From: an uncultured Sphingomonadaceae bacterium
GTDB taxonomy: Bacteria; Pseudomonadota; Alphaproteobacteria; Sphingomonadales; Sphingomonadaceae
Reading direction: 5' to 3'
NCBI GenBank assembly: GCA_947501695.1
Contig: CANMWO010000002.1
Span: 573,327 to 637,326 of the forward strand
Length of the DNA stretch: 64,000 nt
Under the pieces are notes generated by a model, which worked only from the letters and a program-made list of their open reading frames with translations, ran no database searches and was not told where the DNA came from. Position numbers and translations under genes: made by a program. This document shows, piece after piece, positions 15,865 to 64,000 of the stretch; position 1 is the stretch's first letter; the number at the start of each line of letters is the position of its first letter.

Positions 15865-15876
15865 TTGTCCGGACAA
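15865..15876. promoter_or_regulatory. palindromic operator site 1 (TTGTCCGGACAA)
   Basis: Exact palindrome 21 bp upstream of ATG 15898; context aagTTGTCCGGACAAattt. Confidence 0.85.
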
Positions 15877-15897
15877 ATTTAACGAAGGATCATCCTT

Positions 15898-16704
15898 ATG
15901 TTTCTCACCAGCCTCTCCGCTTTGGCCCTCGCCGCCGGATCGCCGCAGACCCTTACCCTGGGCGAGCAGTTGCCGGGCGTCTTCACTAATGAGGAACAGG
16001 CCTATTTTGAAAAAGATGCGGGCCGGACTCCGCCGCCATGGATCGCGCTGAAAATTGAACAGCGAGGTTCCGGGCTCGTCGTCACCCGCACGGATGCCTT
16101 CGGCAAAGCGGTTGCGGCACCACTCACGGGGCTTGCTGCCACAGGCGTGCATCGCGACAGCCTGACATTGGGCAATTGTACCCGCAATTTTGATCGCACG
16201 GACACGGGCTGGGTCTATAGTAAGCTACAAAATAGAATGGCCTGTCGTCAGGATTATCAAATTACCGGCGTCAATGCCGACGGGCTGACCCTGCGTTTTG
16301 CCGATGGCACCGAAACCCAATTGAAGCGCGCCCGTCCGGTCGAATGCTGGGCCGCCGCGAAGAAGACCGAACCCAAGGCAGATGGCAGCCCGGACTGGCT
16401 GTTCGCCCAGAAATTAAGCCTGCATGATCAAGGAGGACGGGTCATGGTTGGTGGCGGAGACAGTGGCGCCGAACCGCTGATCCTGCGTATGCGGGCGGTC
16501 TATTGGCCCAAGCCCAGCACGAACCGGCCAAGCATGGTGCTCTATGTCCATAAGCCCGATAATCCCGATAGCGCCGTCAGCTACAGCTGGGCCGATATCA
16601 ATGCCAGCCGAGTTGGCTTGAACTTGCGCTGGATGCAGGCCAGTTGCACGATCAAAGGCGCCGAGCGTTCCTCCGATGTGACAAGCCAAAATTTTCGTGG
16701 CTGA
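15898..16704 (+). CDS. exported hypothetical protein
   Basis: Signal-peptide-like MFLTSLSALALAAG; C-terminal domain ...LHDQGG...SYSWAD...RVGLNLRWMQASCT; AAGGA RBS; directly behind an operator. Confidence 0.7.
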   Translation: MFLTSLSALALAAGSPQTLTLGEQLPGVFTNEEQAYFEKDAGRTPPPWIALKIEQRGSGLVVTRTDAFGKAVAAPLTGLAATGVHRDSLTLGNCTRNFDRTDTGWVYSKLQNRMACRQDYQITGVNADGLTLRFADGTETQLKRARPVECWAAAKKTEPKADGSPDWLFAQKLSLHDQGGRVMVGGGDSGAEPLILRMRAVYWPKPSTNRPSMVLYVHKPDNPDSAVSYSWADINASRVGLNLRWMQASCTIKGAERSSDVTSQNFRG

Positions 16705-17466
16705 TTATTTTGCCGGTGGTGTGAAAAGGGCCTCGTCTATCGCTGTATTCACTTTGGTTTCTGTCCAGAATACCTCGTTGGATTTGCGCCCGTCATAATA
16801 GAGCGTGACATGACGCGCCTGCAGCCAGCGCGGATCTGCCAGCCTTACGAAATCATCATAGACCCGCAGATGCCAACCCTTTGGGGTGCGAAAACCCATC
16901 GTCCGGATGGCGTGACTTTGTTGATCGATACCAAATAGCGTTTTGCCGCCCTTCGGGTCGGTAAGCTCCACCGTATAAAGCGCATGGCCGCCGACATCAT
17001 CATCCGGCAATCGGGTAGCAGTGAAACCGGGTTTGTCAGCCTGCCGGATGATCCCGAAACCGAAATTACTGGCCCAGAATTTTTCCGCTTCTGCCTTGGG
17101 TGTGATGCCGCGTTCTGTCCATGTTGTTTCCCCGTCGAAACCCACTTCGAAAATCAGCTTTTCGCCCTTTTTTGCTATAATCCTTACTTTGCCATCAGCA
17201 CCATGGGCGACGGTTCGGTTGGAATCAAATATCCGCCACATGCGATAGTCGCTTGCAACAGTGCGAGGGTGATGACCAGTCGCACCAAAGAAAATCGCAT
17301 GACCGGATAGTGTCAGCGAGCGAGCATTGGCCCAATCATCCCCGCCCGCAGCTTCCCGGGCCATGGACAATATGGCCGCACCGTCAGGTTCGCGCTCGGC
17401 GGCCGAAAGCGGTAACACAGCGACTATCAGTGCCATCAGCATCACGCTACGAAACAGACGAAACAT
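16705..17466 (-). CDS. exported hypothetical protein (LolA/lipoprotein-sorting-like beta fold, tentative)
   Basis: Signal peptide MFRLFRSVMLMALIVAVLPLSAA; beta-rich body (VGFDGETTW, TLFGIDQQSHAI); fold guess only. Confidence 0.6.
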   Translation of the reverse strand: MFRLFRSVMLMALIVAVLPLSAAEREPDGAAILSMAREAAGGDDWANARSLTLSGHAIFFGATGHHPRTVASDYRMWRIFDSNRTVAHGADGKVRIIAKKGEKLIFEVGFDGETTWTERGITPKAEAEKFWASNFGFGIIRQADKPGFTATRLPDDDVGGHALYTVELTDPKGGKTLFGIDQQSHAIRTMGFRTPKGWHLRVYDDFVRLADPRWLQARHVTLYYDGRKSNEVFWTETKVNTAIDEALFTPPAK

Positions 17467-17485
17467 GGGCAGCACTCCTATTTAG

Positions 17486-17497
17486 TTGTCCGGACAA
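17486..17497. promoter_or_regulatory. palindromic operator site 2 (TTGTCCGGACAA)
   Basis: Exact palindrome in the 74 bp divergent gap between 17466(-) and 17541(+). Confidence 0.85.
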
Positions 17498-17540
17498 ATT
17501 TACCTTGCCTTCAACCCCTGGTTTCTGTCAACATCAAGCC

Positions 17541-18950
17541 ATGAACAATCAGACCTCTTCAATCAGCAGACGTGCTTTTGTTGGTGGGATGAGTGCATCA
17601 TTAATTGCCTGCGCCGCGCCGCGCCGAACCTGGAGCAAGACCACCGCTGATGTCATTATAGTGGGTGCCGGTCTGGCCGGATTGCACGCCGCGAGCCTGA
17701 TTGAAAACGCCGGCTATAAGGTCATCCTGCTCGAAGGGGCTGCGCATGCTGGGGGTCGTCTGCATACGCTTGACGATTTACCCGGCCAACCTGATGCAGG
17801 CGGCATTCAAATTGGTGCGTCCTATAAGCGTTTTCATAACATTGCCGATCGGCTGGGTGTAGAACGCTATGTCCCGCCGCCGTCGCCACGTGGCTCCTTA
17901 TACCATATTGATGGAATCCCTTTAACCGCAAAGCAGTGGTCAACGGCATTGCAGAACAAACTTGCGGCCCCGGAAAAGGCAACCCTGCCTGATCGCCTGT
18001 TTTTCTCCTACCTGAACAATCTGCCGAAGTTCGAAAATATCGCGGACTGGATGAAACCGGAAGCACAGGCCATTGACATCGCGCTAAGTCAATATTTGCG
18101 TGAACAGGGTGCCTCGGAAGAAGCGCTGCGGCTGATCAATGCCAATCTCAACGGGAACAGCATTGACCAACAATCGGCGTTGCACATGGCCCGATCGCTG
18201 GCGATGTTTCGCGCAAGCTCTGATCCGGTCCGCTACGTGCGCGGCGGATCACAGCGGATGACCGATGCCATGGCTGCGTCCCTGCGCAGCGAATTGCTGC
18301 TCAACAGCCCTGTCATGGCAATAAAGGATGAAGGCGATGGTATTGAGATCAGCCTTGCCGACGGACGCAGATTTGGCGCACGCCATGTCATCTGCACCGC
18401 TCCTTTTTCGACGATACGGAATATGACTATTGAAGCGGATTTACCGCAGGCGTTGCGCGCCATGATCACGCGGCTTCCTTATACACGCGCAAGCTTTGCG
18501 TATCTGTCGGCGGCAGAGGCTTTCTGGAAAAATGATGATCTGCCGGAAACTATTTGGTCTGATGATCCGATGCTCGGCAGAATGTTCGTGCTTGGCGATG
18601 ATCCTGCGATGGTGAAAGTCTGGCTCAACGGTCCCAGCGCAGATCTTGTCGACGCGATGGATGACGCCGCAGCCGGGGCGGTGATAATCCGCAAAATCGA
18701 AGAAGCGCGGCCTTCTGCCAAGGGTAAACTCAAATTTCTGAGGATGTTCAGCTGGCAGAAAAATAAATTTGCCCGCGGAATATATCATCATATCGGTACC
18801 GGTCAGGGCGCGACCTTGGCGCTGGCCACACAATATCGCGGACAACGCCTCCATTTTGCCGGCGAGCATCTGGCTCAGCAAAGCTCAGGTATGGAAGGCG
18901 CGCTGGAAAGCGGGCAGCGAACCGCTGAACATGTGCTTGCGACACTCTAA
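17541..18950 (+). CDS. Tat-exported flavin monoamine oxidase family protein
   Basis: SRRAFVGG twin-arginine signal; VIIVGAGLAGL...EGAAHAGGR; HFAGEH...SGMEGALESG. Confidence 0.88.
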   Translation: MNNQTSSISRRAFVGGMSASLIACAAPRRTWSKTTADVIIVGAGLAGLHAASLIENAGYKVILLEGAAHAGGRLHTLDDLPGQPDAGGIQIGASYKRFHNIADRLGVERYVPPPSPRGSLYHIDGIPLTAKQWSTALQNKLAAPEKATLPDRLFFSYLNNLPKFENIADWMKPEAQAIDIALSQYLREQGASEEALRLINANLNGNSIDQQSALHMARSLAMFRASSDPVRYVRGGSQRMTDAMAASLRSELLLNSPVMAIKDEGDGIEISLADGRRFGARHVICTAPFSTIRNMTIEADLPQALRAMITRLPYTRASFAYLSAAEAFWKNDDLPETIWSDDPMLGRMFVLGDDPAMVKVWLNGPSADLVDAMDDAAAGAVIIRKIEEARPSAKGKLKFLRMFSWQKNKFARGIYHHIGTGQGATLALATQYRGQRLHFAGEHLAQQSSGMEGALESGQRTAEHVLATL

Positions 18951-18976
18951 TGGAACATCACGACAAGGCCTGCAAT

Positions 18977-19840
18977 ATGGATAACAGGAAACCACAAAAA
19001 CTCAGCCGCCGCCAGATCATGGCCGGCACTGCCGCGCTGGGCCTCTCGGCATCGGTAAGCAGCTATGCCAGTGCGAAAACGCTAGCTGTTATCCAGGCAC
19101 CGGAACAGCGCAAAACTGTGGTTCTGGTGCATGGAGCATGGCATGGCGGCTGGTGCTGGCGAGACGTAAGAGCACAGCTTGAGGCGCAGGGTCACCGAGT
19201 ATTCACGCCGACCTTAACTGGTCTTGCCGACAGAGCTCATTTGCTTTCGAAGGATATCGGCCTCGATACGCATATCAAGGACATCACATCCTTGATCGAT
19301 TATTATGACCTCAGCGACATCATATTGGTCGGCCACAGCTATGGCGGGATGGTGATCACCGGGGTGGCCGACGCCAGAAAGGCCCAGATTGCAGAGATTG
19401 TCTATCTTGATGCTGCCTTGCCGGAAAATGGCCAGACGATGATCACGCAGGGTCCAGAACGGAGCCCGGACATCATCGAACAGAGCCGCAAAGCACTGGC
19501 CGGGCTCGCGCCCGATGGTGTTGCGATGGGCGCATTCCCGCCTGAATTTCTCGGGATTTCGACAGATCATCCTGGCTACAACTGGGTTGCCGAAAAGCTT
19601 ACCCCGCACCCCCTAAAAACCTGGCTAGACCCGATCACATTGGAAAACGGCGGTTCGGCGGGATTGAAGCGCAGCTATATCCACTGCACGGCCCCGGCTT
19701 TGCCCAATAGCAGCTTTCCCTTTCATGCCGAGCAGGTGCAAGCCGATGATAGCTGGGTCTATCATGATCTCGCTACCGGCCATGACGCGATGGTGACGGC
19801 GGCCGATGACATTGTCAGGATACTAACCGCCGCAACATAA
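18977..19840 (+). CDS. Tat-exported alpha/beta hydrolase (SABP2/methylesterase-like)
   Basis: SRRQIMAG signal; VLVHGAWHGGWCW, LVGHSYGG (canonical Ser), LATGHDAMV; start may be 18950. Confidence 0.87.
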   Translation: MDNRKPQKLSRRQIMAGTAALGLSASVSSYASAKTLAVIQAPEQRKTVVLVHGAWHGGWCWRDVRAQLEAQGHRVFTPTLTGLADRAHLLSKDIGLDTHIKDITSLIDYYDLSDIILVGHSYGGMVITGVADARKAQIAEIVYLDAALPENGQTMITQGPERSPDIIEQSRKALAGLAPDGVAMGAFPPEFLGISTDHPGYNWVAEKLTPHPLKTWLDPITLENGGSAGLKRSYIHCTAPALPNSSFPFHAEQVQADDSWVYHDLATGHDAMVTAADDIVRILTAAT

Positions 19841-19842
19841 AA

Positions 19843-19868
19843 ACCCGCCGCCCTTTCAGGCAGCGGGT
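19843..19868. terminator. intrinsic terminator between convergent hydrolase and TonB receptor
   Basis: acccgccgcc-ctttca-ggcagcgggt hairpin with a preceding A-tract (U-tract on minus strand). Confidence 0.6.
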
Positions 19869-19889
19869 CTATACCAGTTTTTCGCTGCG

Positions 19890-22340
19890 TCAGTAGCGAG
19901 CTGTCAAAACAACTCCAAATCTCCGTCCAGGCCGAAGACCAGCGATAAAGTTACGCTTGAAGGTGTCATCGCCATCAGCATAACGAATAATCTGCGCGAC
20001 GGAATCCTCGTCAAACAGGTTTTTAACATAGCCCTGTATCTTGAAATTCTCGTTCTGGAAGCCGAGTCGGATGTCCGAAACGACCGATCCGCCAGTTTCC
20101 GCGAGATTGTGAACCTGCGCAAAGCTGGTCGAAACCACGCTGACATTGGCACCGGCAAATACTTCCCAATCACTTGACCCGACGGGCATACGCCAATCTG
20201 CATCGGCAAATATCTGATGGACTGGCGCACGCGGTATGCTTTTGCCTTTGATAGAGCCAAAGATCGATTGGCAGCCCGCGGTGTCGGGGAATTCATCTCC
20301 GGTTGAGCAGTTCACGAGATTATCGTCAGCGACATCATCCAGCACACCCTGGTTTTGATCAAAACCCGAAGTAAATTTGCTGTCAGCAAGGGCATAGTTA
20401 ACTGTAAAGGTAAGATTATCGCTTGGTTTCAAAATCGTTTCCAATTCGAGACCAAATACCCGTGCATCTCCCGCATTGACCACCGCCGATACCACACTGG
20501 TCGGCGATTGGACATTCTGGGTTAGCTGATAGCCTTCTATCTCGTTGTAGAAGGCTGCCAAATTGACCGTCAGCGCGCGATCAAGAAATACGTTCTTCGA
20601 ACCAATTTCATAGGCGGTTGCTTCTTCTTCCTCATAGGAAGGCACACCGGCGTTAATTGCTGTCACACCATTGAAACCGCCGGGCTTCTGGCCTTGGGCA
20701 AAAGTGGCATAAAGCAAGTTATCCGGCGTTACTTGCCAATCTAGCAAGACACGAGGAGAGAATTTGGTGAATGTCGCCGATGACAATACCGGTGCCACTG
20801 CTGGATCACCCAAATCACGGTCAATCACCGATTGCTCGATTTTCTCTTCCGCATAACGGGCTTCTACACTTAGCGTTACCGTGTCGGTAATATCGAAACC
20901 CACTGCGCCAAAAATGGCCCAATTCCGCAGGTCCTGATTATTGACATTGCGCGGGACAATAACATTACCGGCTCCCGCAGGGTTGGTCAGAAAGTTAAAG
21001 AAACATCCGTTGGCAGGGGAACATAATGCGGCGCGGCGAGCTTCCGAATTGGCCAGAGCGCGTATATTGGCATCTGCTGGTAGCGTGCGGATATCGCGGC
21101 TATCATCGCTTTGGTCGAAATAAAAGCCACCTACCATCACATCAAAGCGATCACCATCATAGGCCAAGCGGAGTTCTTGCGACCAGTCTTCGGTCTCACC
21201 AGCATTAGCGAATGAAAAGTCGGTTGGGCCTCCATTGACGATGCCGATACCGACAGGTCCTGCAGGGAAAGTAGCAAATGTGGAAGGCTGAAAACTATTC
21301 GGACCATAGTCGCCGTCCGTAACGAGACTGTTCCGCACGCGATTGTAACCCGTCAATGATGTCAGCGTCAGTTGATCGCTTATGTCATAATCCATCCGCA
21401 AGCTGGCGTTAAATGTTTTCACATTCAAACCCACATCGTCCGGATCAGCAAACTGCCGAGTATAATCAGTATTAATCTGCCCCGGCTGAATCACGCCACA
21501 GAAATAACGGCCTGCCCCTCCATAAAATCCGCCATTATCAAAGAAGCAGTTATTGTCGCTCGCGCTGGTCGCAAAAATCGCCGGTTGGCCATCATCTGTA
21601 CGGTTATAATAGGTCCGTACCTGTGCAGTGAAAGGTCCGCCATCATCGAAGGCAAAACCACCGGCGAAGGAATAGGATTTCTGCTTACCCACCTTATTAC
21701 CATCGAACAGGTTGGTATATTCACCGCCAAATTCAAAATAACGGCCAGAAGCAAAGGCTGTTATAGAATCGGTCACAGGACCACGAATATTGGCATTAAT
21801 ATCAAAGCGGCTATTCTCAGAGATGTCGGCAGAAATGCTGCCGGTCAAACTGTCAGCGCCAGTCTTTGAAATAATATTGATCGCGCCAGAATAGGTATTG
21901 CGACCATAAAGTGCGCTTTGCGGACCTTTTACGACTTCGATCCGCTCGATATTATCGACATTATAATCACCGATTGAGCCGCTAAAATAAATCCCGTCGA
22001 TAAAAATCGCGACACCCGAAGTACCCAAGACATTGGCTTGACCACGAATGACAGGGCGGTTCGCATCCCGGCCCAGACTTGCGTCAAATGTCAGACCGGC
22101 AGTGACTTTCGAAATATCAGCGACGCTATCCAGCGCCAGATCATCTATCGCTTCGGATGACACAACGGCGACCGATGTCGGAATTTCTTGCAGGTTTTCA
22201 GAAAATTTCCGCGCAGTGACTATAATAACGTCAGAATCATCTTCGACGGCGGTATCAGTGGCACTTGTATTTTGTGCCAAGACCGAGGCTGGCATGGCCG
22301 CCGTTGCTGCCAACAGCGCGGCTTTGAATATCGTTTTCAT
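19890..22340 (-). CDS. TonB-dependent receptor
   Basis: Signal peptide MKTIFKAALLAATAA..., VIIVTARK..ENLQEIP, IEVVKGPQSALYGRNT..GAIN, C-terminal GRRFGVVLTARY; GGGAG RBS. Confidence 0.95.
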   Translation of the reverse strand: MKTIFKAALLAATAAMPASVLAQNTSATDTAVEDDSDVIIVTARKFSENLQEIPTSVAVVSSEAIDDLALDSVADISKVTAGLTFDASLGRDANRPVIRGQANVLGTSGVAIFIDGIYFSGSIGDYNVDNIERIEVVKGPQSALYGRNTYSGAINIISKTGADSLTGSISADISENSRFDINANIRGPVTDSITAFASGRYFEFGGEYTNLFDGNKVGKQKSYSFAGGFAFDDGGPFTAQVRTYYNRTDDGQPAIFATSASDNNCFFDNGGFYGGAGRYFCGVIQPGQINTDYTRQFADPDDVGLNVKTFNASLRMDYDISDQLTLTSLTGYNRVRNSLVTDGDYGPNSFQPSTFATFPAGPVGIGIVNGGPTDFSFANAGETEDWSQELRLAYDGDRFDVMVGGFYFDQSDDSRDIRTLPADANIRALANSEARRAALCSPANGCFFNFLTNPAGAGNVIVPRNVNNQDLRNWAIFGAVGFDITDTVTLSVEARYAEEKIEQSVIDRDLGDPAVAPVLSSATFTKFSPRVLLDWQVTPDNLLYATFAQGQKPGGFNGVTAINAGVPSYEEEEATAYEIGSKNVFLDRALTVNLAAFYNEIEGYQLTQNVQSPTSVVSAVVNAGDARVFGLELETILKPSDNLTFTVNYALADSKFTSGFDQNQGVLDDVADDNLVNCSTGDEFPDTAGCQSIFGSIKGKSIPRAPVHQIFADADWRMPVGSSDWEVFAGANVSVVSTSFAQVHNLAETGGSVVSDIRLGFQNENFKIQGYVKNLFDEDSVAQIIRYADGDDTFKRNFIAGLRPGRRFGVVLTARY

Positions 22341-22363: not shown

Positions 22364-22375
22364 TTGTCCAGACAA
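22364..22375. promoter_or_regulatory. operator site 3 (TTGTCCAGACAA)
   Basis: One central mismatch; 23 bp upstream of the TonB receptor ATG. Confidence 0.8.
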
Positions 22376-22411: not shown

Positions 22412-22423
22412 TTGTCCAGACAA
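22412..22423. promoter_or_regulatory. operator site 4 (TTGTCCAGACAA)
   Basis: Second copy 48 bp from site 3; context aatTTGTCCAGACAAattt. Confidence 0.8.
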
Positions 22424-22604: not shown

Positions 22605-22616
22605 TTGTCCGGACAA
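22605..22616. promoter_or_regulatory. operator site 5 (TTGTCCGGACAA)
   Basis: Exact palindrome 20 bp upstream of ATG 22637, at the head of a 9-gene + strand run. Confidence 0.85.
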
Positions 22617-28055: not shown

Positions 28056-28064
28056 ATAGTGCAA

Positions 28065-44098: not shown

Positions 44099-44101
44099 GT
44101 C

Positions 44102-49234: not shown

Positions 49235-49272
49235 AAGACTTTTGATAGCGCTACAACTGAAAGGCGTTATAG

Positions 49273-49284
49273 TTGTCCGGACAA
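49273..49284. promoter_or_regulatory. operator site 9 (TTGTCCGGACAA)
   Basis: Exact palindrome 22 bp upstream of the MFS ATG at the head of a 6-gene operon. Confidence 0.85.
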
Positions 49285-49306
49285 CTTTTCGAATCACAGA
49301 GGGTGC

Positions 49307-54551: not shown

Positions 54552-54554
54552 GAC

Positions 54555-56932: not shown

Positions 56933-58116
56933 CGTTTCCATGCTCCGAAACCAAACCACATGATACCTTCCGCCAGCCGTCCGGTGGTTTCGCTATCAAC
57001 AGCGTTAGCGCTCTCATCCGCTATCGCTTGCGCAACGGCTTCCTCACCGTAAATGCCAATGCTGGGCACAACGAACTGGAAATAGTCATCGGCGGCAAAA
57101 CCACCCGCTTCGCAAAGCGCTGGAGGGCTCTCATCGCGATAGCCTTTGTAGAACGGCTCCGAGTTATACCAACTGTCCCAATCGAGATAAAAGCCGTCAA
57201 AGGCGTTCATCTGGTCATTAGGCGGCAACTCCATATGAAGCAGCAGACCGCCAGGCTTGAGCACGCGATAGGCTTCTTTAAACGCGGCTGCACGGGCCTT
57301 TTTAGAGAGCTCGTGAAGGAACATTGAAGAGAAGACGAGGTCAAAGCTGTCGTCCGGATAATCCAGCGCATCGGCGGACATTTGCGCGAAATCGACGTCC
57401 TGACCCTGCATTTTAGCGCGAGCCGAGGCATAGCGTAATCCGCCTGCCGCAGCGTCGATCGCTTCAATCTTCGCATCGGGATAAGTCTGTTTCCATGGTA
57501 ACGTATTGTGACCAATGGTGCAGCCAGTATCTAAAATGCTCTGCGGTTTAAAGTCCGGATACTTGCCCTTCACATAGGCGGCCATGGATAGACCAATATC
57601 ATCCAAGTTAGAGCCCATCAGACCCATGGAGAACACAGCCAACCCCTGATCATAAACTGCGCCGGCCTCCAGCGATTCCCCGCCCCGGGTATAGCTGCCC
57701 GGCATCAGGTGCACCTCTATCGCATCGACATTGCGCGGAATATCTAGATCGGGATTCAGTTTGAGCGCACCGGGCCGGGCCGCAACTTTCTGCGCTTCTG
57801 CTTCGAGCCGCTCGATATCACGGGCCACGACATCGCCCGAGGCGTGCCAGACCATTTTCTGAGCCTGCACCCGCATCGACGAGTAAATATTAAATGCCGG
57901 ATCACCGCGCAGGGCCTGATGTGCTTCGTTGCTGGTTTCCGGTGCGCGGCCTTTGTCACGGGCAAAAGCCGGTGCGGCACGCTTGTCATAAGCGGTACGC
58001 AAATCGCCTGCGAGATCGTTGAGAATAAACGCTCTGATGCCCGACACAAAGCGTCCACGCGCCGCTTCCTCTGCGGTCAATTCCGGTTTCATCGGATGTT
58101 GTAATTCTACGCCCAT
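56929..58116 (-). CDS. class I SAM-dependent methyltransferase-fold protein (paralogue of 53307..54551)
   Basis: HLMPGSY, AGAVYDQG, ILDTGCTIGH, FDLVFSSMFLHE; start at ATG 58116. Confidence 0.83.
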   Translation of the reverse strand: MGVELQHPMKPELTAEEAARGRFVSGIRAFILNDLAGDLRTAYDKRAAPAFARDKGRAPETSNEAHQALRGDPAFNIYSSMRVQAQKMVWHASGDVVARDIERLEAEAQKVAARPGALKLNPDLDIPRNVDAIEVHLMPGSYTRGGESLEAGAVYDQGLAVFSMGLMGSNLDDIGLSMAAYVKGKYPDFKPQSILDTGCTIGHNTLPWKQTYPDAKIEAIDAAAGGLRYASARAKMQGQDVDFAQMSADALDYPDDSFDLVFSSMFLHELSKKARAAAFKEAYRVLKPGGLLLHMELPPNDQMNAFDGFYLDWDSWYNSEPFYKGYRDESPPALCEAGGFAADDYFQFVVPSIGIYGEEAVAQAIADESANAVDSETTGRLAEGIMWFGFGAWKR

Positions 58117-59537
58117 CAGAAATTCTCCTCTGCAAAAGCTTCTATTCGCGCTGCCTCGCCCGATTGCCGGATCAGCGCCTGTTTGCGGAAAAAGCGCATC
58201 AATCCGCTTGCCCCCATCCGTGATGCACCAAGCCCGGAATGGCCAAAGCTCGATTTCTCCGCTTCCCAAACCATCGAGGTCAAGGAACCATCATTAATCG
58301 ATACTGCACCCGCATTGAGGCGCGATGCAACTATTTCAGCCTCTTGAGCTGATCCTCCAATGACCGCTGCAGACAAACCGAACTGGCTGTGATTGGCCAT
58401 CATCACGGCTTCATCCACATCGTCAAACACCCGTACAGGGATAACGGGTCCGAAATTCTCATCAGAAATTACCGTCATCGATGAGGTCACATTGGTCAGG
58501 ATCGTTGGCCGCAAATAAAGACCACCACCGAGTTTTTCGACTTTGCCGCCCGAAAGCAACTCCGCGCCTTTTTTAACCGCATCATCAATCTGAGACTGCG
58601 CTATCTGCGCCTGTTTCTCAAAGATAAACGGCCCGATATGGCCTTGGTTGATATCAGGATGATTGAGCTGCACCGCCTCTGCCTGAGCGACCAGACTGGT
58701 GAGGAAAGGGTCTGCGATTGCCTGGGCTACATAGACCCGCTCAATCGACTGACAGGCCTGACCAGTGTTGACGATACTCGCCCTAAGCGCCGTCGCGGCC
58801 GCCTTTTCGGGATCGGCACTGGCAAGAACGATCATCGGGTCTTTGCCGCCTAGTTCCAGACTTGCCGGAATAAAAGCTCTCGCCGCCGCTTGACCGACGT
58901 TGCGCCCCGTGGCGACCGATCCGGTAAAGCAAATATAGTCGACATGGTCGACCATCGCAGCACCCGTCGCACCGTCGCCTTCGATGATCGACAGCACAGT
59001 CGCCAGTTCCGGAACTTTCTGCACGGCTTCCATCAAAGGTTTGATAAAGCGCGGTGTCACTTCAGATGGTTTTACCAACACCGCCGATCCCGCCATCAGT
59101 GCCGGAATCGCGTCGATCAATGCCAGTGTCATCGGGAAGTTCCACGGGCTGATCACGCCAACCAAGCCAAAGGGCACCAGTCGCGTCGAAGTAGTGATCG
59201 TCGGCACCGATGTTGGTTGATCTACCGGCTGGCCATCGGCCATGAGCTGTGGCGCCATAGCGGCCCAGCGTCTTATCTGCCCCGGTACGCCCGCTGCTTC
59301 AATTTTTGAGATACCGCCGCGTCCGGTATCAGCAGTCAGGGCCGGAATGATATCGCCCAGATTGGCCTCTATCGCATCAGCCCATTGCAACAATATCCCG
59401 CCACGCGCTTCCGGTGTTTTCGCAGCCCAATTTTTTTGTGCATCGCGAAGCCGCTTTGCTTCGTCGGCAACCGCCTCAACGTCTAGGGGCGTGATTGCAT
59501 AGTCTGCTTTGCCCGTACGCGGATTGCGTATCTTCAT
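58116..59537 (-). CDS. aldehyde dehydrogenase
   Basis: VISPWNFP, VKPSE.TP, FTGSVATG, LELGGKDP, NTGQACQSIER, DENFGP. Confidence 0.94.
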   Translation of the reverse strand: MKIRNPRTGKADYAITPLDVEAVADEAKRLRDAQKNWAAKTPEARGGILLQWADAIEANLGDIIPALTADTGRGGISKIEAAGVPGQIRRWAAMAPQLMADGQPVDQPTSVPTITTSTRLVPFGLVGVISPWNFPMTLALIDAIPALMAGSAVLVKPSEVTPRFIKPLMEAVQKVPELATVLSIIEGDGATGAAMVDHVDYICFTGSVATGRNVGQAAARAFIPASLELGGKDPMIVLASADPEKAAATALRASIVNTGQACQSIERVYVAQAIADPFLTSLVAQAEAVQLNHPDINQGHIGPFIFEKQAQIAQSQIDDAVKKGAELLSGGKVEKLGGGLYLRPTILTNVTSSMTVISDENFGPVIPVRVFDDVDEAVMMANHSQFGLSAAVIGGSAQEAEIVASRLNAGAVSINDGSLTSMVWEAEKSSFGHSGLGASRMGASGLMRFFRKQALIRQSGEAARIEAFAEENF

Positions 59538-59577
59538 TGCTGTGCCTTCATTTTTGGGCCTTCATTTCTGGGCCTTC
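59534..59577 (-). repeat. three tandem 14-bp units (AGGCMCARMAATGA) at the deacetylase/ALDH junction
   Basis: Minus strand reads aggcccagaaatga aggcccaaaaatga aggcacagcaatga. Confidence 0.8.
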
Positions 59578-60485
59578 CAGCTATCGAGTATCGCATCACC
59601 CCGTGCGAACCCGATATCATTGTGCTCAGCAACGCCGGCAATCAACTTCTCAAAACTGCTAATGCGATAGGGTAGACCCATAATATAAGGCGTTAGGTGC
59701 ATGGGTAGCATTCGCCCGCCATTTTGCTCCGCCTCCGCGAGCAACCAATTGGCCGCATCGGTCATCTGCTGTGCATAGCTGTCAACCGATTGCTGCTGGA
59801 CATTGATGATCTGACGATCCGATAGTTCGTGGTTGAGCGGGATATTGGTAATCGCTCCCGAATCTGTCTGAAACGCATAAGGCAATTCGTCATTGGCCCA
59901 ATCACACATATAATCGACACCGGCCTCGGCGAGCAATTTTGCGGTGTTGAAACTTTGCGAACGCGCTATCGACAACCAGCCGCGTGGGCGCGTTCCGATC
60001 ACTTTTTCCAGCGCGGTGAGCGAACCTTCGATTAGCGCTTTCTCATCCGCTTCAGCCAGTCCGCTCGCAATAGTGCCGTTCATGTCGGTGCTATGCGCGA
60101 TAATCTCATGGCCGCCGGAGATGATGTCCTCAATCAACTGCGGATAGCGCTGGGCGATGACGCTGTTGGTCGCGACCGAAATCTTCGCGCCAACCTTCTC
60201 AAACGCACCAAGCAACCGGTAAATCCCGATCCGCGTGCCATATTCGCGCGCGGTATAATGGCGATAGTCGGGATAAGCGGTCTGCATATGCCCCGGCGCG
60301 CGGAACGGATTGTCGTTGGGCACCATCGGGAAATATTCGAGGGAGATGACCGGCCATATCATCAGCTTTTTGTCGCCCGGCCATTGCACCGGCTTGCGAT
60401 CAAACAGATTGCTGTACGGATAATAGTCATGGTCCATTCCGTGGCGGCGCTTGGGATAGTCGAGATAGCTGGCATCAAGGCTCAT
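59562..60485 (-). CDS. polysaccharide-deacetylase-fold (PuuE/PgdA-like) amidohydrolase
   Basis: VISLEYF, REYGTRIGIYRL, HEIIAH, PRGWLS, DWANDELP, HLTPYIMGLPYR. Confidence 0.87.
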   Translation of the reverse strand: MSLDASYLDYPKRRHGMDHDYYPYSNLFDRKPVQWPGDKKLMIWPVISLEYFPMVPNDNPFRAPGHMQTAYPDYRHYTAREYGTRIGIYRLLGAFEKVGAKISVATNSVIAQRYPQLIEDIISGGHEIIAHSTDMNGTIASGLAEADEKALIEGSLTALEKVIGTRPRGWLSIARSQSFNTAKLLAEAGVDYMCDWANDELPYAFQTDSGAITNIPLNHELSDRQIINVQQQSVDSYAQQMTDAANWLLAEAEQNGGRMLPMHLTPYIMGLPYRISSFEKLIAGVAEHNDIGFARGDAILDSWKAQK

Positions 60486-61375
60486 GATAAGTCTCCCGTC
60501 TGTTTGCGGAAGGCGTCAACTATATCACCAGCCTTGGTAATCCATGCCCGACCATCAGCCGCAATATGTTCAAGCACTGCTTCAAACGGACCAATGCGGT
60601 GAGGCTGTCCGATCAGATAGCTGTGCAGCGGGATGCACATCACCGTGCCGGACTGCGCGCCCTCTTCAGCGAGCCGGTCATATTGCCTGATCAGCGTATC
60701 GGCATATTCCCGCGGGCTCATGTTATAGATAAAGAACCCATAATGATCATTGACCTCTAGGCTGTAGGGTATCGCCGTCAGCTGGCCGGATTTCACCTTC
60801 ACGTCAGTCGGCTGGTCATCATGATAAAGGTCACAGGTATAATCCATGCCATATTCCGCGAGCAGGTCGAGCGTGCGCGGCGTGTGGGTCAGCGCTGGCG
60901 CCAGCCAGCCTTTGATCCGTTGGCCGGTAGCGCGCTGAACTGTTTCAATCGAATCCTCAATGATCGCGCGTTCCTGCGCCTCATCCATTCCATAAGAATA
61001 GCGTGTGTTGTAAATGCCGTGGCTGAAAAACTCCCAACCGCGCTGATTGGCATCCTCGACCACTTCGGGAATATGGTCACATAACGCCACGGACAAGCTG
61101 ACAGATCCCGGAAAACCATGCTTGGTCATCATCTCCGCCATGCGCCAATGTGACACGCGATTGGCATGATCGCGATGGCTGTAGCCGACCACATCGGGAT
61201 GAGGCTTTGGCCAACTCTTCCGATGCGGATTGACCGCCGGGTCGAGTTCATAAAATTCCAAATTGGGCGCGACCCAAACAGCGCAGGTTTTGCCGTCAGG
61301 CCACTCGATTTTCGGACGCCCACGATAGGGCGCATAATCAAATAGTCCCGGATCAGATTTCTGCACGTCAGACAC
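60482..61375 (-). CDS. polysaccharide-deacetylase-fold (PuuE/PgdA-like) amidohydrolase (tandem paralogue)
   Basis: VAPNLEFY, RDHANRVSHWR, WEFFSHG, IKGWLAP, DLYHDDQP, PYSLEVND, LHSYLIGQPHR. Confidence 0.87.
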   Translation of the reverse strand: MSDVQKSDPGLFDYAPYRGRPKIEWPDGKTCAVWVAPNLEFYELDPAVNPHRKSWPKPHPDVVGYSHRDHANRVSHWRMAEMMTKHGFPGSVSLSVALCDHIPEVVEDANQRGWEFFSHGIYNTRYSYGMDEAQERAIIEDSIETVQRATGQRIKGWLAPALTHTPRTLDLLAEYGMDYTCDLYHDDQPTDVKVKSGQLTAIPYSLEVNDHYGFFIYNMSPREYADTLIRQYDRLAEEGAQSGTVMCIPLHSYLIGQPHRIGPFEAVLEHIAADGRAWITKAGDIVDAFRKQTGDLS

Positions 61376-62055
61376 TAGCGCGCCTCCAACCAGTCAATCA
61401 CTGTCTGCACTGGCTCGACATCAGCATATTTAATCTGCAAGTCGGTCAGATTGGCAAAATGATAGCTTTCATGCTTGTCCGCACATGTTTCAATCGGCAC
61501 GATTGTGCGATAACCATAGCTTAAAGCATCCACCGCTGTGGCCCGAACACAACCGGATGTAGAACCGCCGGTGACAATCACCGTATCCACTTTATGCCAC
61601 GTCAAATAGCTCGCCAGTTGTGTTTCAAAAAAGGCGCTGGGCATGCGCTTGGTATATTGCAGGTCATTGGCATCGACCTCGCAACGCGGATCAAGTTTAT
61701 GCCGCTCGCTGTCATATTTGATATTCTGGAGCGAATCTTCGGTATCGGTGCGCGTGCCCCAGACACCGGCATCGCCTGCATCCGCTTTATAAGCGACACG
61801 ACTCCAGATCACCGGCATGGCCTTTGCTCGTGCCAAAGCCGATATCTGATTAATATAGTCAATCTGCTTCGGATCGGTCTCATAAGCGGTTTTGAACATA
61901 TCCATCCGGGTATAGGCTTGTTGTACATCAACATTGACGATGGCGAGCTTTTCTCCGAAACCGAATTTCTTGCGCGCTGGATTGCCAATCAACTCTTCAA
62001 AAATTTCCTTGGCCGTACGCCCGTCCTCAACCATTTTTGTGCCTTTGACGTCCAT
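61375..62055 (-). CDS. isochorismatase-family amidohydrolase (maleamate amidohydrolase NicF / N-carbamoylsarcosine amidase-like)
   Basis: NVDVQ (Asp), KRMPSAFF (Lys), TGGSTSGCVRATAVDA (Cys); start 62055 or 62034. Confidence 0.88.
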   Translation of the reverse strand: MDVKGTKMVEDGRTAKEIFEELIGNPARKKFGFGEKLAIVNVDVQQAYTRMDMFKTAYETDPKQIDYINQISALARAKAMPVIWSRVAYKADAGDAGVWGTRTDTEDSLQNIKYDSERHKLDPRCEVDANDLQYTKRMPSAFFETQLASYLTWHKVDTVIVTGGSTSGCVRATAVDALSYGYRTIVPIETCADKHESYHFANLTDLQIKYADVEPVQTVIDWLEAR

Positions 62056-62104
62056 AAAGTTTCTCTCCGGAATCGATAAAAATGTAATAAACAACAGAAA
62101 AGAC

Positions 62105-62130
62105 TTGTCGAGACAAATTTGTCCGGACAA
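62105..62130. promoter_or_regulatory. tandem operator sites 10 and 11 (TTGTCGAGACAA; TTGTCCGGACAA)
   Basis: 62105-62116 (2 mismatches) and 62119-62130 (exact) in the 86 bp divergent gap. Confidence 0.85.
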
Positions 62131-62141
62131 ATATAGAGGTT

Positions 62142-63521
62142 ATGATTACACGCCATTTTATAGACGTCGCCAAAGACGGCAACACACGCCGTGTCCATTA
62201 TCGCATGGTGGGTAGTGGCCCGCCGCTGCTTATGGTGCATCAAAGCCCGCGCAGTTCAAAAGAATATGAAGCGCTGATGGTAAAATGGTCTTCCCATTTC
62301 ACCTGTATCGCCCCCGATACGCCGGGTTTCGGGCAATCCGATCCGCTGCCTGGTCATCCCGAGATCGCCGAATATGCCGATGCGGCCATCGAATTTCTTG
62401 ATGCTTTAGGTATCGAAAAATGCGCCGCTTATGGTTTCCATTCCGGCGGGATCATATTGGTGACAGCGGTCAAACGGCATCCGACTCGAATCACCACCTT
62501 GGCCGTCGGCGGCTATGCTATCTGGTCCGCCGAAGAAATGGCCTTGTTCAGCGACCGCTATCTGCCCGAATTTCATCCGTCCGATTATGGCGAGCATCTG
62601 ACATGGCTTTGGAATCGTATTCTCGAACAAAGCTGGTTCTTCCCATGGTTTGCGACAGATGATGCCCACCGGCTATCTGTCGCCAATGACGATCCGGCGC
62701 GGGTCGACGCAATCGTTCGCGAAATGCTTGATGCGGGCAATGCTTATCAGGCTGGCTATGGTGCCGTACTGCGCGCACCGCGGGATATTCCGGCGGTGGA
62801 TGCTGATGTCCCTCCTTGCCTGATCAGCGCCTATGATGGTGATCCGCTGCAGGAGCATATTGATCGACTGGGCGATATGCCGCCGACTTGGTCGGCCCAA
62901 AAAGTAGCTACCCCAGAGGACCATCAGGCCGTCAGCTTAAATCATTTATTGGCCTCCCAAACAGCAGTGGTCGATGGTTTGAATGAGGCCAGCGACGAAG
63001 GCTTTGTAGCGATACAAACCGATATCTTTAATGGCCTAATCCATTGGCGCGGAGCGCGCGATGCTGATGAGCTTGTTCTGCATGCGCCTGCCTATGCAGC
63101 GATAAATGATCAACCTGCCGGCCAGATTGCGATTGATTTGCCCGGTCATGGCTTGTCCGACAATTGGATCGGCGAAGCACCTGTCGCTTGGAGTGCATGG
63201 GATGATGTCATCACTGCGGTTGCAGATGCACTTGGTACTAGCGAGACAGTCTATCCCGCTCTGCCCGATGGCGCACCGGATCAACTCTATCCGGATTTAT
63301 CCCCTGACCGGTTTGGTAACTATCTGAATATGGCGTGGCAAATTGTTCGCGCCCGCCACATGTTTGCCCCTTGGTATCAGGTAGATGCAGCCCATGCCGT
63401 TGCTTTTGAGGAAGAGCGGCTGCGGCCTGAACATCTCGCCGCCGAGCATCTCTCGCTAATCAATGCATCAGCAGCCAAAGAATTTCACATCGCCCTCCAA
63501 TTCAGACAAAAGGAAAACTAA
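62142..63521 (+). CDS. alpha/beta-hydrolase-fold protein with His elbow plus degenerate second domain
   Basis: LLMVHQSPRSS, APDTPGFGQSD, AYGFHSGG; C-terminal half has AIDLPGHGLSD but no full second active site. Confidence 0.8.
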   Translation: MITRHFIDVAKDGNTRRVHYRMVGSGPPLLMVHQSPRSSKEYEALMVKWSSHFTCIAPDTPGFGQSDPLPGHPEIAEYADAAIEFLDALGIEKCAAYGFHSGGIILVTAVKRHPTRITTLAVGGYAIWSAEEMALFSDRYLPEFHPSDYGEHLTWLWNRILEQSWFFPWFATDDAHRLSVANDDPARVDAIVREMLDAGNAYQAGYGAVLRAPRDIPAVDADVPPCLISAYDGDPLQEHIDRLGDMPPTWSAQKVATPEDHQAVSLNHLLASQTAVVDGLNEASDEGFVAIQTDIFNGLIHWRGARDADELVLHAPAYAAINDQPAGQIAIDLPGHGLSDNWIGEAPVAWSAWDDVITAVADALGTSETVYPALPDGAPDQLYPDLSPDRFGNYLNMAWQIVRARHMFAPWYQVDAAHAVAFEEERLRPEHLAAEHLSLINASAAKEFHIALQFRQKEN

Positions 63522-64000
63522 TGGGAATCAGAGAAGACATGCCGCTTTTGGGCCGCCATGAAGGCGTTTGGGATGGCACCTACACCTATTTTAATGCACA
63601 GAATGAAAAGATTGACGAGCACGCTTCCCGCCTGCTGTGCCGTCTTCCTGATGACGGGGATATTCCTTACCACCAGACCAACCATTACAAATGGGCTGAC
63701 GGCAAAACCGAAATTCGCGAATTTCCTGCCGCTTATCATGACAAGCGCATATGGTGGGACAATGAACTGATAAAAGGCTGGGCCGCAGAAGTGCCGCTAG
63801 ACGAATATAATCGCACCATGATGTTGTATTGGCAGCGGCAAGGTGATCCATCGCTTTATCTATATGAGCAGATCCAGATTTCGGATGACGGTCAGAACCG
63901 CTGCCGGACATGGCATTGGATTCGCAACGGCATGTTGGAAACGCGGACCGCGATACAGGAGACTTTTGTGACCAAAGACTGGCGCAGTATTGATGCGGAA
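63521..64000 (+). CDS. DUF3598-like beta-barrel protein (runs off window)
   Basis: Hand-translated: MGIREDMPLLGRHEGVWDGTYTY...YHQTNHYKWADG...IWWDNE...NRCRTWHWIRNG..TRTAIQE; TAATG coupling; missing from the ORF track. Confidence 0.75.
   Translation, partial: MGIREDMPLLGRHEGVWDGTYTYFNAQNEKIDEHASRLLCRLPDDGDIPYHQTNHYKWADGKTEIREFPAAYHDKRIWWDNELIKGWAAEVPLDEYNRTMMLYWQRQGDPSLYLYEQIQISDDGQNRCRTWHWIRNGMLETRTAIQETFVTKDWRSIDAE

Follow-up and report, generated by a model that had tools for sequence, protein, structure and literature searches.

In a 64,000-nucleotide stretch of contig CANMWO010000002.1 from an uncultured Sphingomonadaceae bacterium (GenBank assembly GCA_947501695.1, positions 573,327 to 637,326; 'the window' denotes this whole stretch), a 12-base palindrome, TTGTCCGGACAA, is shared as operator by a whole regulon that starts at position 15865 and runs on past the window's end. 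The locus is a conserved order-wide regulon and not a chance neighbourhood, because operator and gene modules recur together across Sphingomonadales loci. Its substrate is something we infer from gene content. The reading that we favour, as a tentative one, is that about 52 genes repressed by a HutC-type GntR regulator serve uptake and complete breakdown of an N-heterocycle with alkyl-substituted, five-membered lactam or imide rings of pyrrole derivation, most likely linear tetrapyrroles. The parts of this reading are not of equal strength. Catabolism from imide or lactam to branched dicarboxylate is probable, given that several independent lines point to it. That the rings come from bilins, whether free or bound to peptide, or from what oxidation makes of such linear tetrapyrroles, is possible, and is offered with due reserve.

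A shared operator across Sphingomonadales

Six exact copies of the palindrome (starting at 15865, 17486, 22605, 43050, 49273 and 62119) are accompanied by four with one mismatch (22364, 22412, 44834 and 46535) and two promoter-placed copies with two mismatches (37274 and 62105). At up to two mismatches the window holds 17 matches as against 2.19 expected, and none of 100 shuffles had as many. With start codons refined against the gene calls of Parasphingorhabdus litoris, all 12 listed sites either precede a gene by 20–60 bp or fall between divergent genes, and the symmetry of the operator reaches outward via its flanks to approximately AATTTGTCCGGACAAATT. The operons behind these sites comprise 47–48 genes in the window, where the initial annotation had linked about 45 to one operator, and at least four more, read from relatives, lie past 64000. 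The left boundary that it had set, at 15865, is correct since this is the first operator and no copy of the motif was found upstream of it in the window.

Starting from that boundary, the exact copy at 15865–15876 is 22 bp upstream of the gene at 15898, and that at 17486–17497 is in the divergent gap between 16705–17475 (−) and the gene starting at 17541 (+). One of the single-mismatch copies, at 22364–22375, is 24 bp upstream of the start of TonB-dependent receptor 1 (22340); another, at 22412–22423, is in the gap between this receptor and a DUF1330 gene (start 22637), which itself has an exact copy 21 bp upstream (22605–22616). At the junction of the PrpD and GntR genes the operator-like ATGTACGGACAA (37274–37285, two mismatches) has ATGTCCGGACAA at the matching position in other Parasphingorhabdus genomes. 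Further along, an exact copy (43050–43061) is between the genes for a CitE-like lyase (start 43022, −) and a DUF1838 protein (start 43132, +), single-mismatch copies are upstream of a membrane protein gene (44834–44845; start 44788, −) and about 53 bp upstream of the start of TonB receptor 2 (46535–46546; start 46599), and an exact copy is 23 bp upstream of the second MFS transporter gene (49273–49284). Two adjacent operators, TTGTCGAGACAA and an exact copy, occupy 62105–62130, in the gap between an isochorismatase-fold gene (start 62055, −) and a hydrolase gene at 62142 (+). By eye, GC-rich hairpins are present at 19841–19889, 44041–44101 and 49101–49306, at convergent or operon ends, with T runs after two of the three, e.g. 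GGTCGGCCGCGTTGGTCGGCC...TTTTTTT downstream of the DUF1838 gene; they look like intrinsic terminators bounding operator-controlled units.

The DUF1838 protein is 94% identical to its counterpart in P. litoris, whose locus is fully syntenic. A scan restricted to one genome per species found 205 relatives, and among the best 80 of these, which were examined, almost all are labelled Sphingomonadales, with genera that include Parasphingorhabdus, Sphingomonas, Novosphingobium, Blastomonas, Porphyrobacter, Sphingopyxis and Sandaracinobacter. The same modules are found beside DUF1838 in the relatives, their order widely shuffled, and the palindrome is found in the relatives' promoter gaps (variants ...ACAT and TTGTCCAGACAA). 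At least one operator site is present in 84 of 87 fetched loci, and exact 12-mers number 107 in the 1.54 Mb of DNA fetched, as against 0.08 expected. Co-occurrence of the gene set in other genomes had been chosen beforehand as a refutation test, and it is modules and operator together that recur across the order, in more than 80 Sphingomonadales genomes. Near-identical sequence also occurs in algal metagenomes.

Smaller versions are also met with. Tistrella mobilis has a reduced regulon with an exact operator before a PuuE-like gene, 64% identical to the window's, that is followed by genes for a TRAP transporter, PrpD, acyl-CoA dehydrogenase (ACAD; CoA, coenzyme A) and two CoA-transferases, without CitE and MaoC. 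On plasmids of Pseudosulfitobacter and Azospirillum, CitE, MaoC, PrpD, ACAD, CoA-transferase, GntR and TRAP genes are clustered, and the promoter gaps of these clusters carry ATGTCCGGACAA and TTGTACGTACAA. In a metagenomic contig (L184) a single operon, HapK-SDR-PuuE-like-CitE-MaoC-ACAD, stands behind one operator.

Some related clusters are operator-free. Plasmids pJE1 of Sphingomonas sp. JE1 (L087) and pSA1 of Novosphingobium resinovorum (L088) have paralogous clusters, at 30–60% identity and lacking TTGTCCGGACAA, that comprise HapK and SDR, PrpD, a zinc-dependent alcohol dehydrogenase (Zn-ADH), a TonB receptor, MFS carriers, hydrolases and two flavin adenine dinucleotide (FAD) oxidases, together with a 242-amino-acid protein family and a pair formed by a methyltransferase-fold protein and a small partner, both of which the window also has. 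The pSA1 cluster additionally has LeuCD-like and CoA-transferase genes, and that of pJE1 adds hydantoinase A/B. Sphingomonads would, on account of these clusters, hold a family of pathways for related compounds. Beside the minimal regulon of T. mobilis, positions 1–9845 of plasmid pTM2 (L083) have genes for a GntR regulator, hydantoinase B/oxoprolinase, a cysteine hydrolase, ACAD, a CaiB CoA-transferase and LeuCD, and this cluster resembles a counterpart of the maleate-type branch described below, with ATP-dependent opening of a lactam.

The presumed binder of the operator is a GntR/UTRA regulator of HutC type (37339–38100, +), with PF00392 at 6.7e-17 and PF07702 at 5.3e-16; the nearest NCBIfam model is HutC, below its cut-off. 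Such a regulator with a UTRA domain had been foreseen in the initial annotation. It is encoded under a minus-strand open reading frame (ORF; 37309–38112, 267 amino acids), arginine-rich, of low complexity and without family match, that we dismiss as a mere shadow ORF; because it fully overlaps the GntR gene, a gene caller that takes the longest ORF would miss the regulator. The palindrome fits the HutC-type pattern with its GT...AC core, and is found at all the promoters and at the GntR gene. UTRA-type GntR regulators usually control catabolic operons. In other Alphaproteobacteria it is the bare CoA module that is under this operator, for which reason the effector is probably a downstream dicarboxylate or its CoA ester, and the presence of near-identical operators in promoter gaps of the Pseudosulfitobacter and Azospirillum CoA clusters is why the operator–regulator pair seems to belong ancestrally to that module.

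In Tistrella, a UTRA regulator gene (18672–19400 of L083) adjoins an exact operator. Orthology of the window's GntR protein to this regulator was considered and rejected, similarity being confined to the helix-turn-helix region (49% over 45 residues). From this comparison it appears that one 12-base operator is used by regulators with unrelated effector domains.

A second regulator, of LysR type (45456–46445, +), is of uncertain membership. It has no operator of its own, is located between a DUF3598-like gene and that for TonB receptor 2, and is found only in the closest Parasphingorhabdus relatives (17 loci), being absent from the regulon elsewhere, a distribution that speaks for recent insertion or else for additional regulation of receptor 2.

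Probable ring nitrogen removal and coenzyme A-dependent cleavage

The initial annotation envisaged imide opening, deamidation to alkyl-maleates and CoA-dependent cleavage. This sequence of events has gained support, from papers on imidases and from three enzymes encoded past the window in relatives (LeuCD-like, HMGL-like and a third CoA-transferase). On the nitrogen side, a PuuE/imidase-type hydrolase (30230–31096, −) matches the PuuE structure 3CL6 (1e-63) and the structure 3S6O (1e-59) and keeps the motif VNVEEG...SHGYRW, with its Glu-His-Trp (E-H-W). The imidase BpIH, 91% identical to 3S6O, has Glu-His-Trp as catalytic triad (PMC11424739), and published work shows enzymes of the PuuE fold to be imidases. 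In Aspergillus, a hydroxy-lactam is turned into imide, half-amide and dicarboxylate by HxnW (SDR), HxnM (cyclic imidase) and HxnN (amidase), one after the other (PMC9304392). An SDR oxidoreductase gene (31093–31896, −) and one for an amidase-signature amidase (32201–33412, −) adjoin that of the PuuE-like hydrolase in the window. Between SDR and amidase is the gene for a HapK/RedY-family protein (31896–32204, −; PF11639 at 45.1 bits against a gathering threshold of 25, 1.5e-11; PDB entry 2JDJ at 2e-4), here in a catabolic operon and not in a prodiginine cluster, and always SDR-paired in relatives; membership of the HapK family is uninformative on substrate.

Two divergent PuuE-like paralogues (59562–60485 and 60482–61375, both −) keep the Glu and the His, with Met or Asn replacing the Trp of the triad. 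The allantoinase model TIGR03212 gives 249, 101 and 109 bits on the three PuuE-like proteins, below its cut-off of 424.6, so none of them is an allantoinase equivalog. The adjacent gene encodes an isochorismatase-fold amidohydrolase of Ami/NicF/CSHase-like type (61375–62055, −) that is closest to carbamoylsarcosine amidase and matches 4L07 at 3e-29 and 3OT4/3UAO at 1e-19; its Asp, Lys and Cys triad residues all align with those of 4L07/4L08 (4L08 having Ala at the Cys position) and 3OT4. We take 4L07, deposited merely as an isochorismatase-family hydrolase, to be Ami, and 3OT4/3UAO to be NicF. Neither the window nor the relatives' flanks have a gene for 2,5-dihydroxypyridine dioxygenase or N-formylmaleamate deformylase.

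The compound might instead be some other N-heterocycle not derived from tetrapyrroles: a pyrrolidine or pyrrolizidine alkaloid, a kainoid, a lactam or tetramic acid, or a pyridine or piperidine broken down via a cyclic imide in the manner of nicotinate in Aspergillus. We consider this distinctly unlikely. A protein of the flavin amine-oxidase family exported by the twin-arginine translocation (TAT) route (17541–18950, +) has monoamine, cyclohexylamine and hydroxynicotine oxidases as its closest relations, and could suitably oxidise a cyclic amine to the lactam; the SDR, imidase-type and amidase neighbours mirror HxnW/HxnM/HxnN (PMC9304392), the NicF/Ami-like amidohydrolase is in keeping with it, and the operator-free paralogous clusters of pJE1 and pSA1 suggest a pathway family. 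However, Pfam scans of the window gave no molybdenum hydroxylase, NicX-type dioxygenase or NicC-type monooxygenase, and PrpD, Ich/Ccl-like and LeuCD-like enzymes act on a C4 1,4-dicarboxylate backbone and not on glutarate (PMC12290011). That conservation is high among Sphingomonadales of fresh water, sea and soil alike speaks for a substrate of general occurrence, and the CpcT/CpcS-type proteins dealt with below would be left unexplained.

Carbon flow from the favoured imide route would pass through the central CoA block, the genes of which are all on the minus strand: two MmgE/PrpD-family proteins (34779–36086 and 36083–37312), two family III CoA-transferases (38109–39197 and 39205–40398), ACAD (40395–41573), a RipB/Ich-like MaoC hydratase (41653–42162) and a RipC/Ccl-like CitE-type acyl-CoA lyase (42198–43022). 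For the hydratase the best model, RipB/Ich, gives 240 bits against a cut-off of 340, and for the lyase RipC/Ccl gives 231 against 375; the CoA-transferases are nearest to mesaconate and glutarate types, below the equivalog cut-offs. ACAD is 60–72% identical to cluster ACADs of Azospirillum, Pseudosulfitobacter, Variovorax and Tistrella. Compared with the Pseudosulfitobacter and Azospirillum clusters in particular, identity is 60–61% for ACAD, 58–59% for MaoC and 50% for CoA-transferase (39205–40398 with that of the Azospirillum cluster). Although first annotated as part of an undescribed pathway, the block appears, judged by its sequences, to be an itaconate/methylsuccinate-type CoA module of published kind (Gonner et al., PMC12290011). 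In the itaconate cluster of pseudomonads, methylsuccinyl-C4-CoA is dehydrogenated by ACAD and the PrpD protein serves as (S)-(R)-methylsuccinate isomerase, and all substrates of the PrpD family share a 1,4-dicarboxylate backbone substituted at C2/C3 (PMC12290011). The window's PrpDs are only 24–28% identical to the PrpD of the simple clusters, and for that reason their substrates are probably other acids, with more substituents.

The module might be the point of the whole regulon. According to such an explanation, rather unlikely in our judgment, the regulon is for branched C5-dicarboxylates (itaconate, methylsuccinate, citraconate, mesaconate) and their natural amide, imide, ester and lactone derivatives from fungi, plants or fermenters, with no link to tetrapyrroles. 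The TonB receptors would then serve to gather such acids at low concentration, and conversions at the periphery of the pathway would fall to the hydrolases, methyltransferase-fold proteins and oxidoreductases. Degradation of itaconate and methylsuccinate is indeed the published role of such clusters (PMC12290011), MaoC and CitE are nearest to RipB/Ich and RipC/Ccl, and the ACAD identities are high. In Pseudosulfitobacter and Azospirillum, moreover, CitE, MaoC, ACAD, CoA-transferase, PrpD and GntR stand alone with a TRAP transporter and a near-identical operator, and the partial Tistrella set, without CitE and MaoC, carries the exact operator. Nevertheless, six C–N hydrolases, an enzyme of the amine-oxidase family and seven exported proteins exceed what dicarboxylates would need, the CpcT-family and CpcS-fold proteins are left unexplained, and the distance of the PrpDs and the below-equivalog scores of MaoC and CitE also count against a plain C5 module.

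A second, unsaturated branch is suggested by what follows the window. The last operon opens with the gene for a 459-amino-acid alpha/beta hydrolase (62142–63521, +) followed by one for a DUF3598-like protein, and in P. litoris and Blastomonas it runs on with four more genes, for an aconitase-family large subunit, its small subunit, an HMGL-like lyase and a third family III CoA-transferase. Both hydratase subunits score above isopropylmalate-dehydratase subfamily cut-offs (655 vs 531 bits), and the lyase is above the cut-off of the 3-hydroxy-3-methylglutaryl (HMG)-CoA-lyase subfamily. LeuCD works via 2-isopropylmaleate, and maleate and dimethylmaleate are hydrated by enzymes related to it. The last operon diverges from that of the NicF/Ami-like amidohydrolase, the two PuuE-like hydrolases and an aldehyde dehydrogenase, and the divergent pair may be read as a route from a maleimide-type ring to maleamate, alkyl-maleate, alkyl-malate and CoA ester, with cleavage at the end. 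After the CoA-transferase gene, positions 16068–20771 of the P. litoris locus (L084) have genes for a KstD-like FAD dehydrogenase, an NmrA-like protein, PhoX, a second isochorismatase and a TonB receptor; no operator was found in this segment, which makes a regulon end near position 15970 of L084 probable.

Bilin-lyase relatives, other genes and a proposed route

Two proteins (44864–45334, −; 63521–64000, +, cut by the window end) were initially annotated as DUF3598-like. In this they are borne out by NCBI names of homologues and by fold, but not by Pfam, since they score 14.7 and 21.6 bits against a PF12204 cut-off of 22 (E 0.04 and 3e-4); a few homologues, which NCBI names DUF3598, do carry a precomputed PF12204 match. 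A profile of the family gave no match among PDB sequences. The model of the DUF3598-like protein at 44864–45334 (predicted local distance difference test, pLDDT, 94.1) is a ten-stranded barrel of CpcS/nitrobindin type, with template modelling (TM) scores of 0.69 (TMq) for 2O62, 0.65/0.65 for 3BDR, 0.72/0.64 for 4TQ2 and about 0.55 for nitrobindin. A comparison of structures with CpcS, CpcT and nitrobindin barrels, as was proposed at the outset, is informative for the DUF3598-like proteins (TM 0.55–0.72) but yields no informative neighbour for the exported DUF1838 protein (43132–44040, +; Pfam 1.6e-68), a predicted beta-barrel. A haemophore match of the DUF1838 model was rejected as not meaningful, at TM 0.25.

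In orthologous regulons, CpcT/CpeT-family (PF06206) proteins are encoded in operator-controlled operons. Contig L196 has two (74.5 and 77.5 bits), beside a methyltransferase-fold/small partner pair and HapK-SDR-PuuE-like-CMD-VOC genes, and one (78.9 bits) is encoded in a Sphingomonas locus (L073), where its gene shares an operon with that of the 16705–17475 orthologue and is divergent from DUF1838. Their profile matches the phycocyanobilin lyase CpcT 4O4O (2.9e-9) and Arabidopsis CRL, and at least two of the three have, by eye, plausible export signals. On plasmids no CpcT-like protein was found. A further association concerns the exported 268-amino-acid protein at 15898–16704 (+), which has no Pfam match. 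Searched against 1.84 billion representatives, it yielded at least 19 two-domain proteins in which an N-terminal CpcT domain is joined to a C-terminal domain homologous to its residues 130–255; three of the fusions were looked up and all carry PF06206. The link of this protein to CpcT is one of domain fusion only. One fusion gene adjoins an orthologous VOC-MDR-VOC-MFS operon, with 59–65% identity for three of the four genes. At 2455–2610 of that locus (L213), the gap from which the two diverge has a different palindrome, ACTAATGTTATATCATTAGT, on the strength of which the module would be under another regulator in this organism.

For the bilin proposal of the initial annotation, then, CpcT/CpeT proteins in orthologous regulons, CpcT fusions and a CpcS-like fold speak in favour, whereas a CpcT detectable by sequence is lacking in the window. 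A tetrapyrrole origin is made plausible by these bilin-lyase-type companions, by ring chemistry that yields maleimides and succinimides, by periplasmic carriers and TonB receptors that would suit a large hydrophobic pigment, and by the near-identical sequence in algal metagenomes. Tetrapyrrole ring chemistry would give dialkyl-maleimides and dialkyl- or ethylidene-succinimides. In its most far-reaching form, which we regard as more speculative, the proposal is of the first bacterial pathway to mineralise linear tetrapyrroles completely (phycobilins, pigments of biliverdin type, or chromopeptides and photo-oxidation products of these), with exported bilin-lyase relatives (CpcT-type domains and CpcS-type barrels) that free or carry the pigment in the periplasm after TonB-dependent import, perhaps in reverse of the lyase reaction, and with two CoA branches.

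Several results weigh against a tetrapyrrole reading, or against the favoured reading as a whole. The CpcS-like match is at the level of fold, with 11–17% identity, calycin barrels bind many ligands, and the top structural neighbour of the DUF3598-like model, BFA1, has no tetrapyrrole role. For the DUF1838 model (pLDDT 85.7) Foldseek gave nothing above TM 0.32 in the PDB. CpcT-like genes are present in just two of about 100 regulon loci, and no ORF of the window matches PF06206. Direct homology of the 15898–16704 protein to the CpcT-like proteins, suggested by an N-terminal motif seen by eye, was abandoned: BLASTP showed no similarity, hhalign of 13 orthologues with the three CpcT-like proteins gave a probability of 0.2, a 69-sequence profile gave 0.8%, and Pfam gave nothing on the 13 orthologues. 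The gene set has no nameable enzyme for methine-bridge cleavage. All NCBIfam matches of window proteins are below the curated cut-offs, so no enzyme of the window is an equivalog of a characterised one, and the locus was in none of the RNA runs searched. To these are to be added the distance of the PrpDs from those of the simple clusters and, in view of the non-orthologous regulator that adjoins this operator in Tistrella, the presumptive nature of the pairing of the window's own regulator with the operator.

Six-frame ORF calling with Pfam scans, on which the inventory is based, gives about 49 genes between 15865 and 64000, among them four alpha/beta hydrolases, and the inventory first annotated was essentially right. 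It had counted at least six exported proteins; by eye, Sec or TAT signals are present on at least seven soluble proteins. These include, besides those already named, a 256-amino-acid protein that is weakly LolA-like (16705–17475, −; E 0.1), a TAT-exported alpha/beta hydrolase (18950–19840, +), a SnoaL/DUF4440 protein (28059–28568, +) and a CN-hydrolase with TAT-like signal (52156–53310, +). TonB receptors 1 (19890–22340, −) and 2 (46599–49100, +) both match PF07715 and PF00593 (plug and barrel), and no substrate-specific NCBIfam model reaches its cut-off on either. Behind the DUF1330 dimeric alpha-beta barrel (22637–22939, +) are genes, all on the plus strand, for two VOC/glyoxalase-fold proteins (22900–23409 and 24517–24969) with a CurA-like MDR double-bond reductase between them (23410–24504; 264 bits, cut-off 440), MFS transporter 1 (24969–26321), an alpha/beta hydrolase (26318–27124), a YCII-family protein (27121–27423) and a CMD (AhpD-like) family protein (27453–28055). 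On the minus strand are a 300-amino-acid VOC-like protein with weak match (28565–29467), an enoyl-CoA hydratase/crotonase (29469–30233), a PaaK-like acid-CoA ligase (33421–34782) and an integral membrane protein without Pfam match that is conserved in the regulon (44102–44788).

MFS transporter 2 (49307–50599, +) and a FAD_binding_4 oxidase (50599–52149, +) precede the CN-hydrolase, which is followed by a class I methyltransferase-fold protein of 414 amino acids (53307–54551, +), its small 120-amino-acid partner (54555–54917, +) and a 242-amino-acid, weakly DUF3108-like protein (54917–55645, +). In the opposite orientation are a Zn-ADH/quinone-oxidoreductase-like reductase (55635–56654, −), a second small partner (56651–56941, −), paralogue of the first, a second methyltransferase-fold protein (56929–58116, −) and an aldehyde dehydrogenase nearest to succinic semialdehyde dehydrogenase, below the cut-off (58116–59537, −). 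The pair of methyltransferase-fold protein (about 400 amino acids, N-terminal half unknown) and small protein (about 100–120) is thus present twice (53307–54917 and 56651–58116), and it recurs in the paralogous pJE1 and pSA1 clusters as well as in contig L196. In the second copy of the window DTGCTIG stands where a glycine-rich S-adenosylmethionine motif is usual, and against the PDB these proteins matched generic methyltransferases only. Exact-protein look-ups with window proteins found no record.

The first 15833 positions are a separate catabolic island without operator. By reading translations, it has an ACAD, an MDR reductase, a kelch-repeat protein, a metallo-beta-lactamase-fold hydrolase, a ThuA-like protein, acetoin-dehydrogenase-like E1 alpha and beta with a small lipoyl protein, a LuxR regulator, a 547-amino-acid Rieske-type oxygenase, a glutathione S-transferase, VOC and SDR proteins, an AMP-ligase and a TIM-barrel protein; its SnoaL_4 protein is the only island member that was family-scanned.

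The many generic stress-type families of the regulon (VOC, CMD/AhpD-like, YCII, DUF1330, quinone-oxidoreductase-like), together with the free shuffling of module order among genomes, would also suit a global repressor set over unrelated scavenging and electrophile detoxification functions (maleimide- or quinone-type stress), with no single pathway and with a chemical logic that merely reflects how common the enzyme families are. This is very unlikely: the same unusual combination recurs and collapses to single operons in L184 and L196, carbon flow into central metabolism is indicated by the paired TonB receptors and MFS carriers together with three CoA-transferases and two lyases, and regulators of UTRA-type GntR kind are typically on catabolic operons.

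For the favoured tetrapyrrole-type compound the following route may be proposed. It would be imported via the two TonB receptors and, in the periplasm, bound and trimmed by a set of exported proteins made up of the carriers 15898–16704, 16705–17475 and DUF1838 (beta-barrel or LolA-like), the flavin amine-oxidase-family protein, the exported alpha/beta hydrolase, the CN-hydrolase and the SnoaL protein. Ring-sized fragments would enter the cell through the two MFS carriers, where FAD oxidase, VOC, SDR, ene-reductases and the cofactor-less barrels DUF1330, YCII and HapK would convert the rings to cyclic imides. In this way the pigment would be fragmented to maleimide and succinimide rings, and the dialkyl-maleates and dialkyl-succinates derived from them burned.

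For saturated rings, the succinimide would be opened by the PuuE/imidase-type hydrolase and ammonia taken off by the signature amidase, the resulting 2,3-substituted succinate would be epimerised or isomerised by the two PrpD-family enzymes, and CoA-transferase, ACAD, MaoC hydratase and CitE-like lyase would cleave it as in methylsuccinate/itaconate degradation. For unsaturated rings, maleimides would be opened by the divergent PuuE-like hydrolases and converted by the NicF/Ami-like enzyme to alkyl-maleates, and LeuCD-like hydration, CoA-transferase and HMG-CoA-lyase-like cleavage would then lead to pyruvate or acyl-CoA. GntR would sense the downstream dicarboxylate or its CoA ester.

Significance and comparison with known systems

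Tetrapyrrole pigments (chlorophyll, haem, phycobilins) are made and destroyed at very large scale. Our literature searches found no gene-level pathway for heterotrophic mineralisation of tetrapyrrole ring fragments, and no description of the operator, of a function for DUF1838, of bacterial catabolism of alkyl-maleimides or hematinic acid, or of phycobilin use by heterotrophs. Nor did they find a paper on imide-metabolism genes, and what they gave on pJE1 was irrelevant. The core CoA module and PuuE-fold imidases are known already; the regulon as a whole, the LeuCD/HMGL branch, the exported proteins and the association with bilin-lyase-type proteins would, going by these searches, be new. If the favoured reading is true, there would be functions for DUF1838, the DUF3598-like, HapK-like and DUF1330 proteins, the methyltransferase-fold/small pair and the 15898–16704 family, and a catabolic use of bilin-lyase-type proteins outside phototrophs. 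There would also be a possible source of environmental methylsuccinate-type acids, a question left open in PMC12290011, and a marker of pigment recycling by Sphingomonadales around algae and cyanobacteria. Even with another heterocycle as substrate, an operator-defined set of about 50 genes is usable for pathway discovery.

Five known systems bear comparison. With imide metabolism, as known from Blastobacter biochemistry, BpIH, the CIH of P. putida YZ-26 and HxnW/HxnM/HxnN, the window shares an E-H-W hydrolase beside SDR and amidase. It differs in having three PuuE-like paralogues, two with an altered triad, and the literature searched gave no bacterial gene cluster that ties imide catabolism to CoA-dependent cleavage. 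The late nicotinate/nicotine pathway (NicD/NicF, Ami; maleamate to maleate) is resembled by the isochorismatase-fold amidohydrolase with its Asp-Lys-Cys triad. However, the window has no NicX/Hpo dioxygenase, NicC or maleate isomerase, the next step would be by a LeuCD-like hydratase, CoA-transferase and HMGL-like lyase, and the nearest solved relative of the amidohydrolase is N-carbamoylsarcosine amidase.

The itaconate/methylsuccinate cluster (Ict, Ich, Ccl, Mcd, Msi; PA0878-0883 of P. aeruginosa, and Cupriavidus necator; PMC12290011) has in common with the window neighbouring genes for family III CoA-transferase, MaoC-type hydratase, CitE-type lyase, ACAD and MmgE/PrpD, and alphaproteobacterial versions of this type have a GntR gene and a near-identical operator. 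Unlike it, the window's block has two CoA-transferases and two PrpDs, and is one of about ten operons, amid C–N hydrolases, exported proteins and TonB receptors. With dimethylmaleate hydratase, maleate hydratase and LeuCD the resemblance is a two-subunit aconitase-family hydratase in a catabolic operon; here CoA-transferase and an enzyme of the HMG-CoA-lyase family follow, in place of an isocitrate-lyase-family dimethylmalate lyase. Aconitase-family hydratases of these kinds (dimethylmaleate, maleate, LeuCD) act on alkyl-maleates.

The phycobiliprotein lyases of T-type (CpcT/CpeT) and S-type (CpcS/CpeS) are a different kind of comparison, in which the likeness is of PF06206 proteins in orthologous regulons and of DUF3598-like barrels at TM 0.65–0.72. 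In contrast to those lyases, the regulon's hosts are non-photosynthetic heterotrophs, and its CpcT-like proteins are encoded in catabolic operons and, at least two of three judged by eye, plausibly have export signals. The window itself has the domain that is elsewhere fused to CpcT (15898–16704) and a fold-level resemblance to CpcS only, as read from sequence and model.

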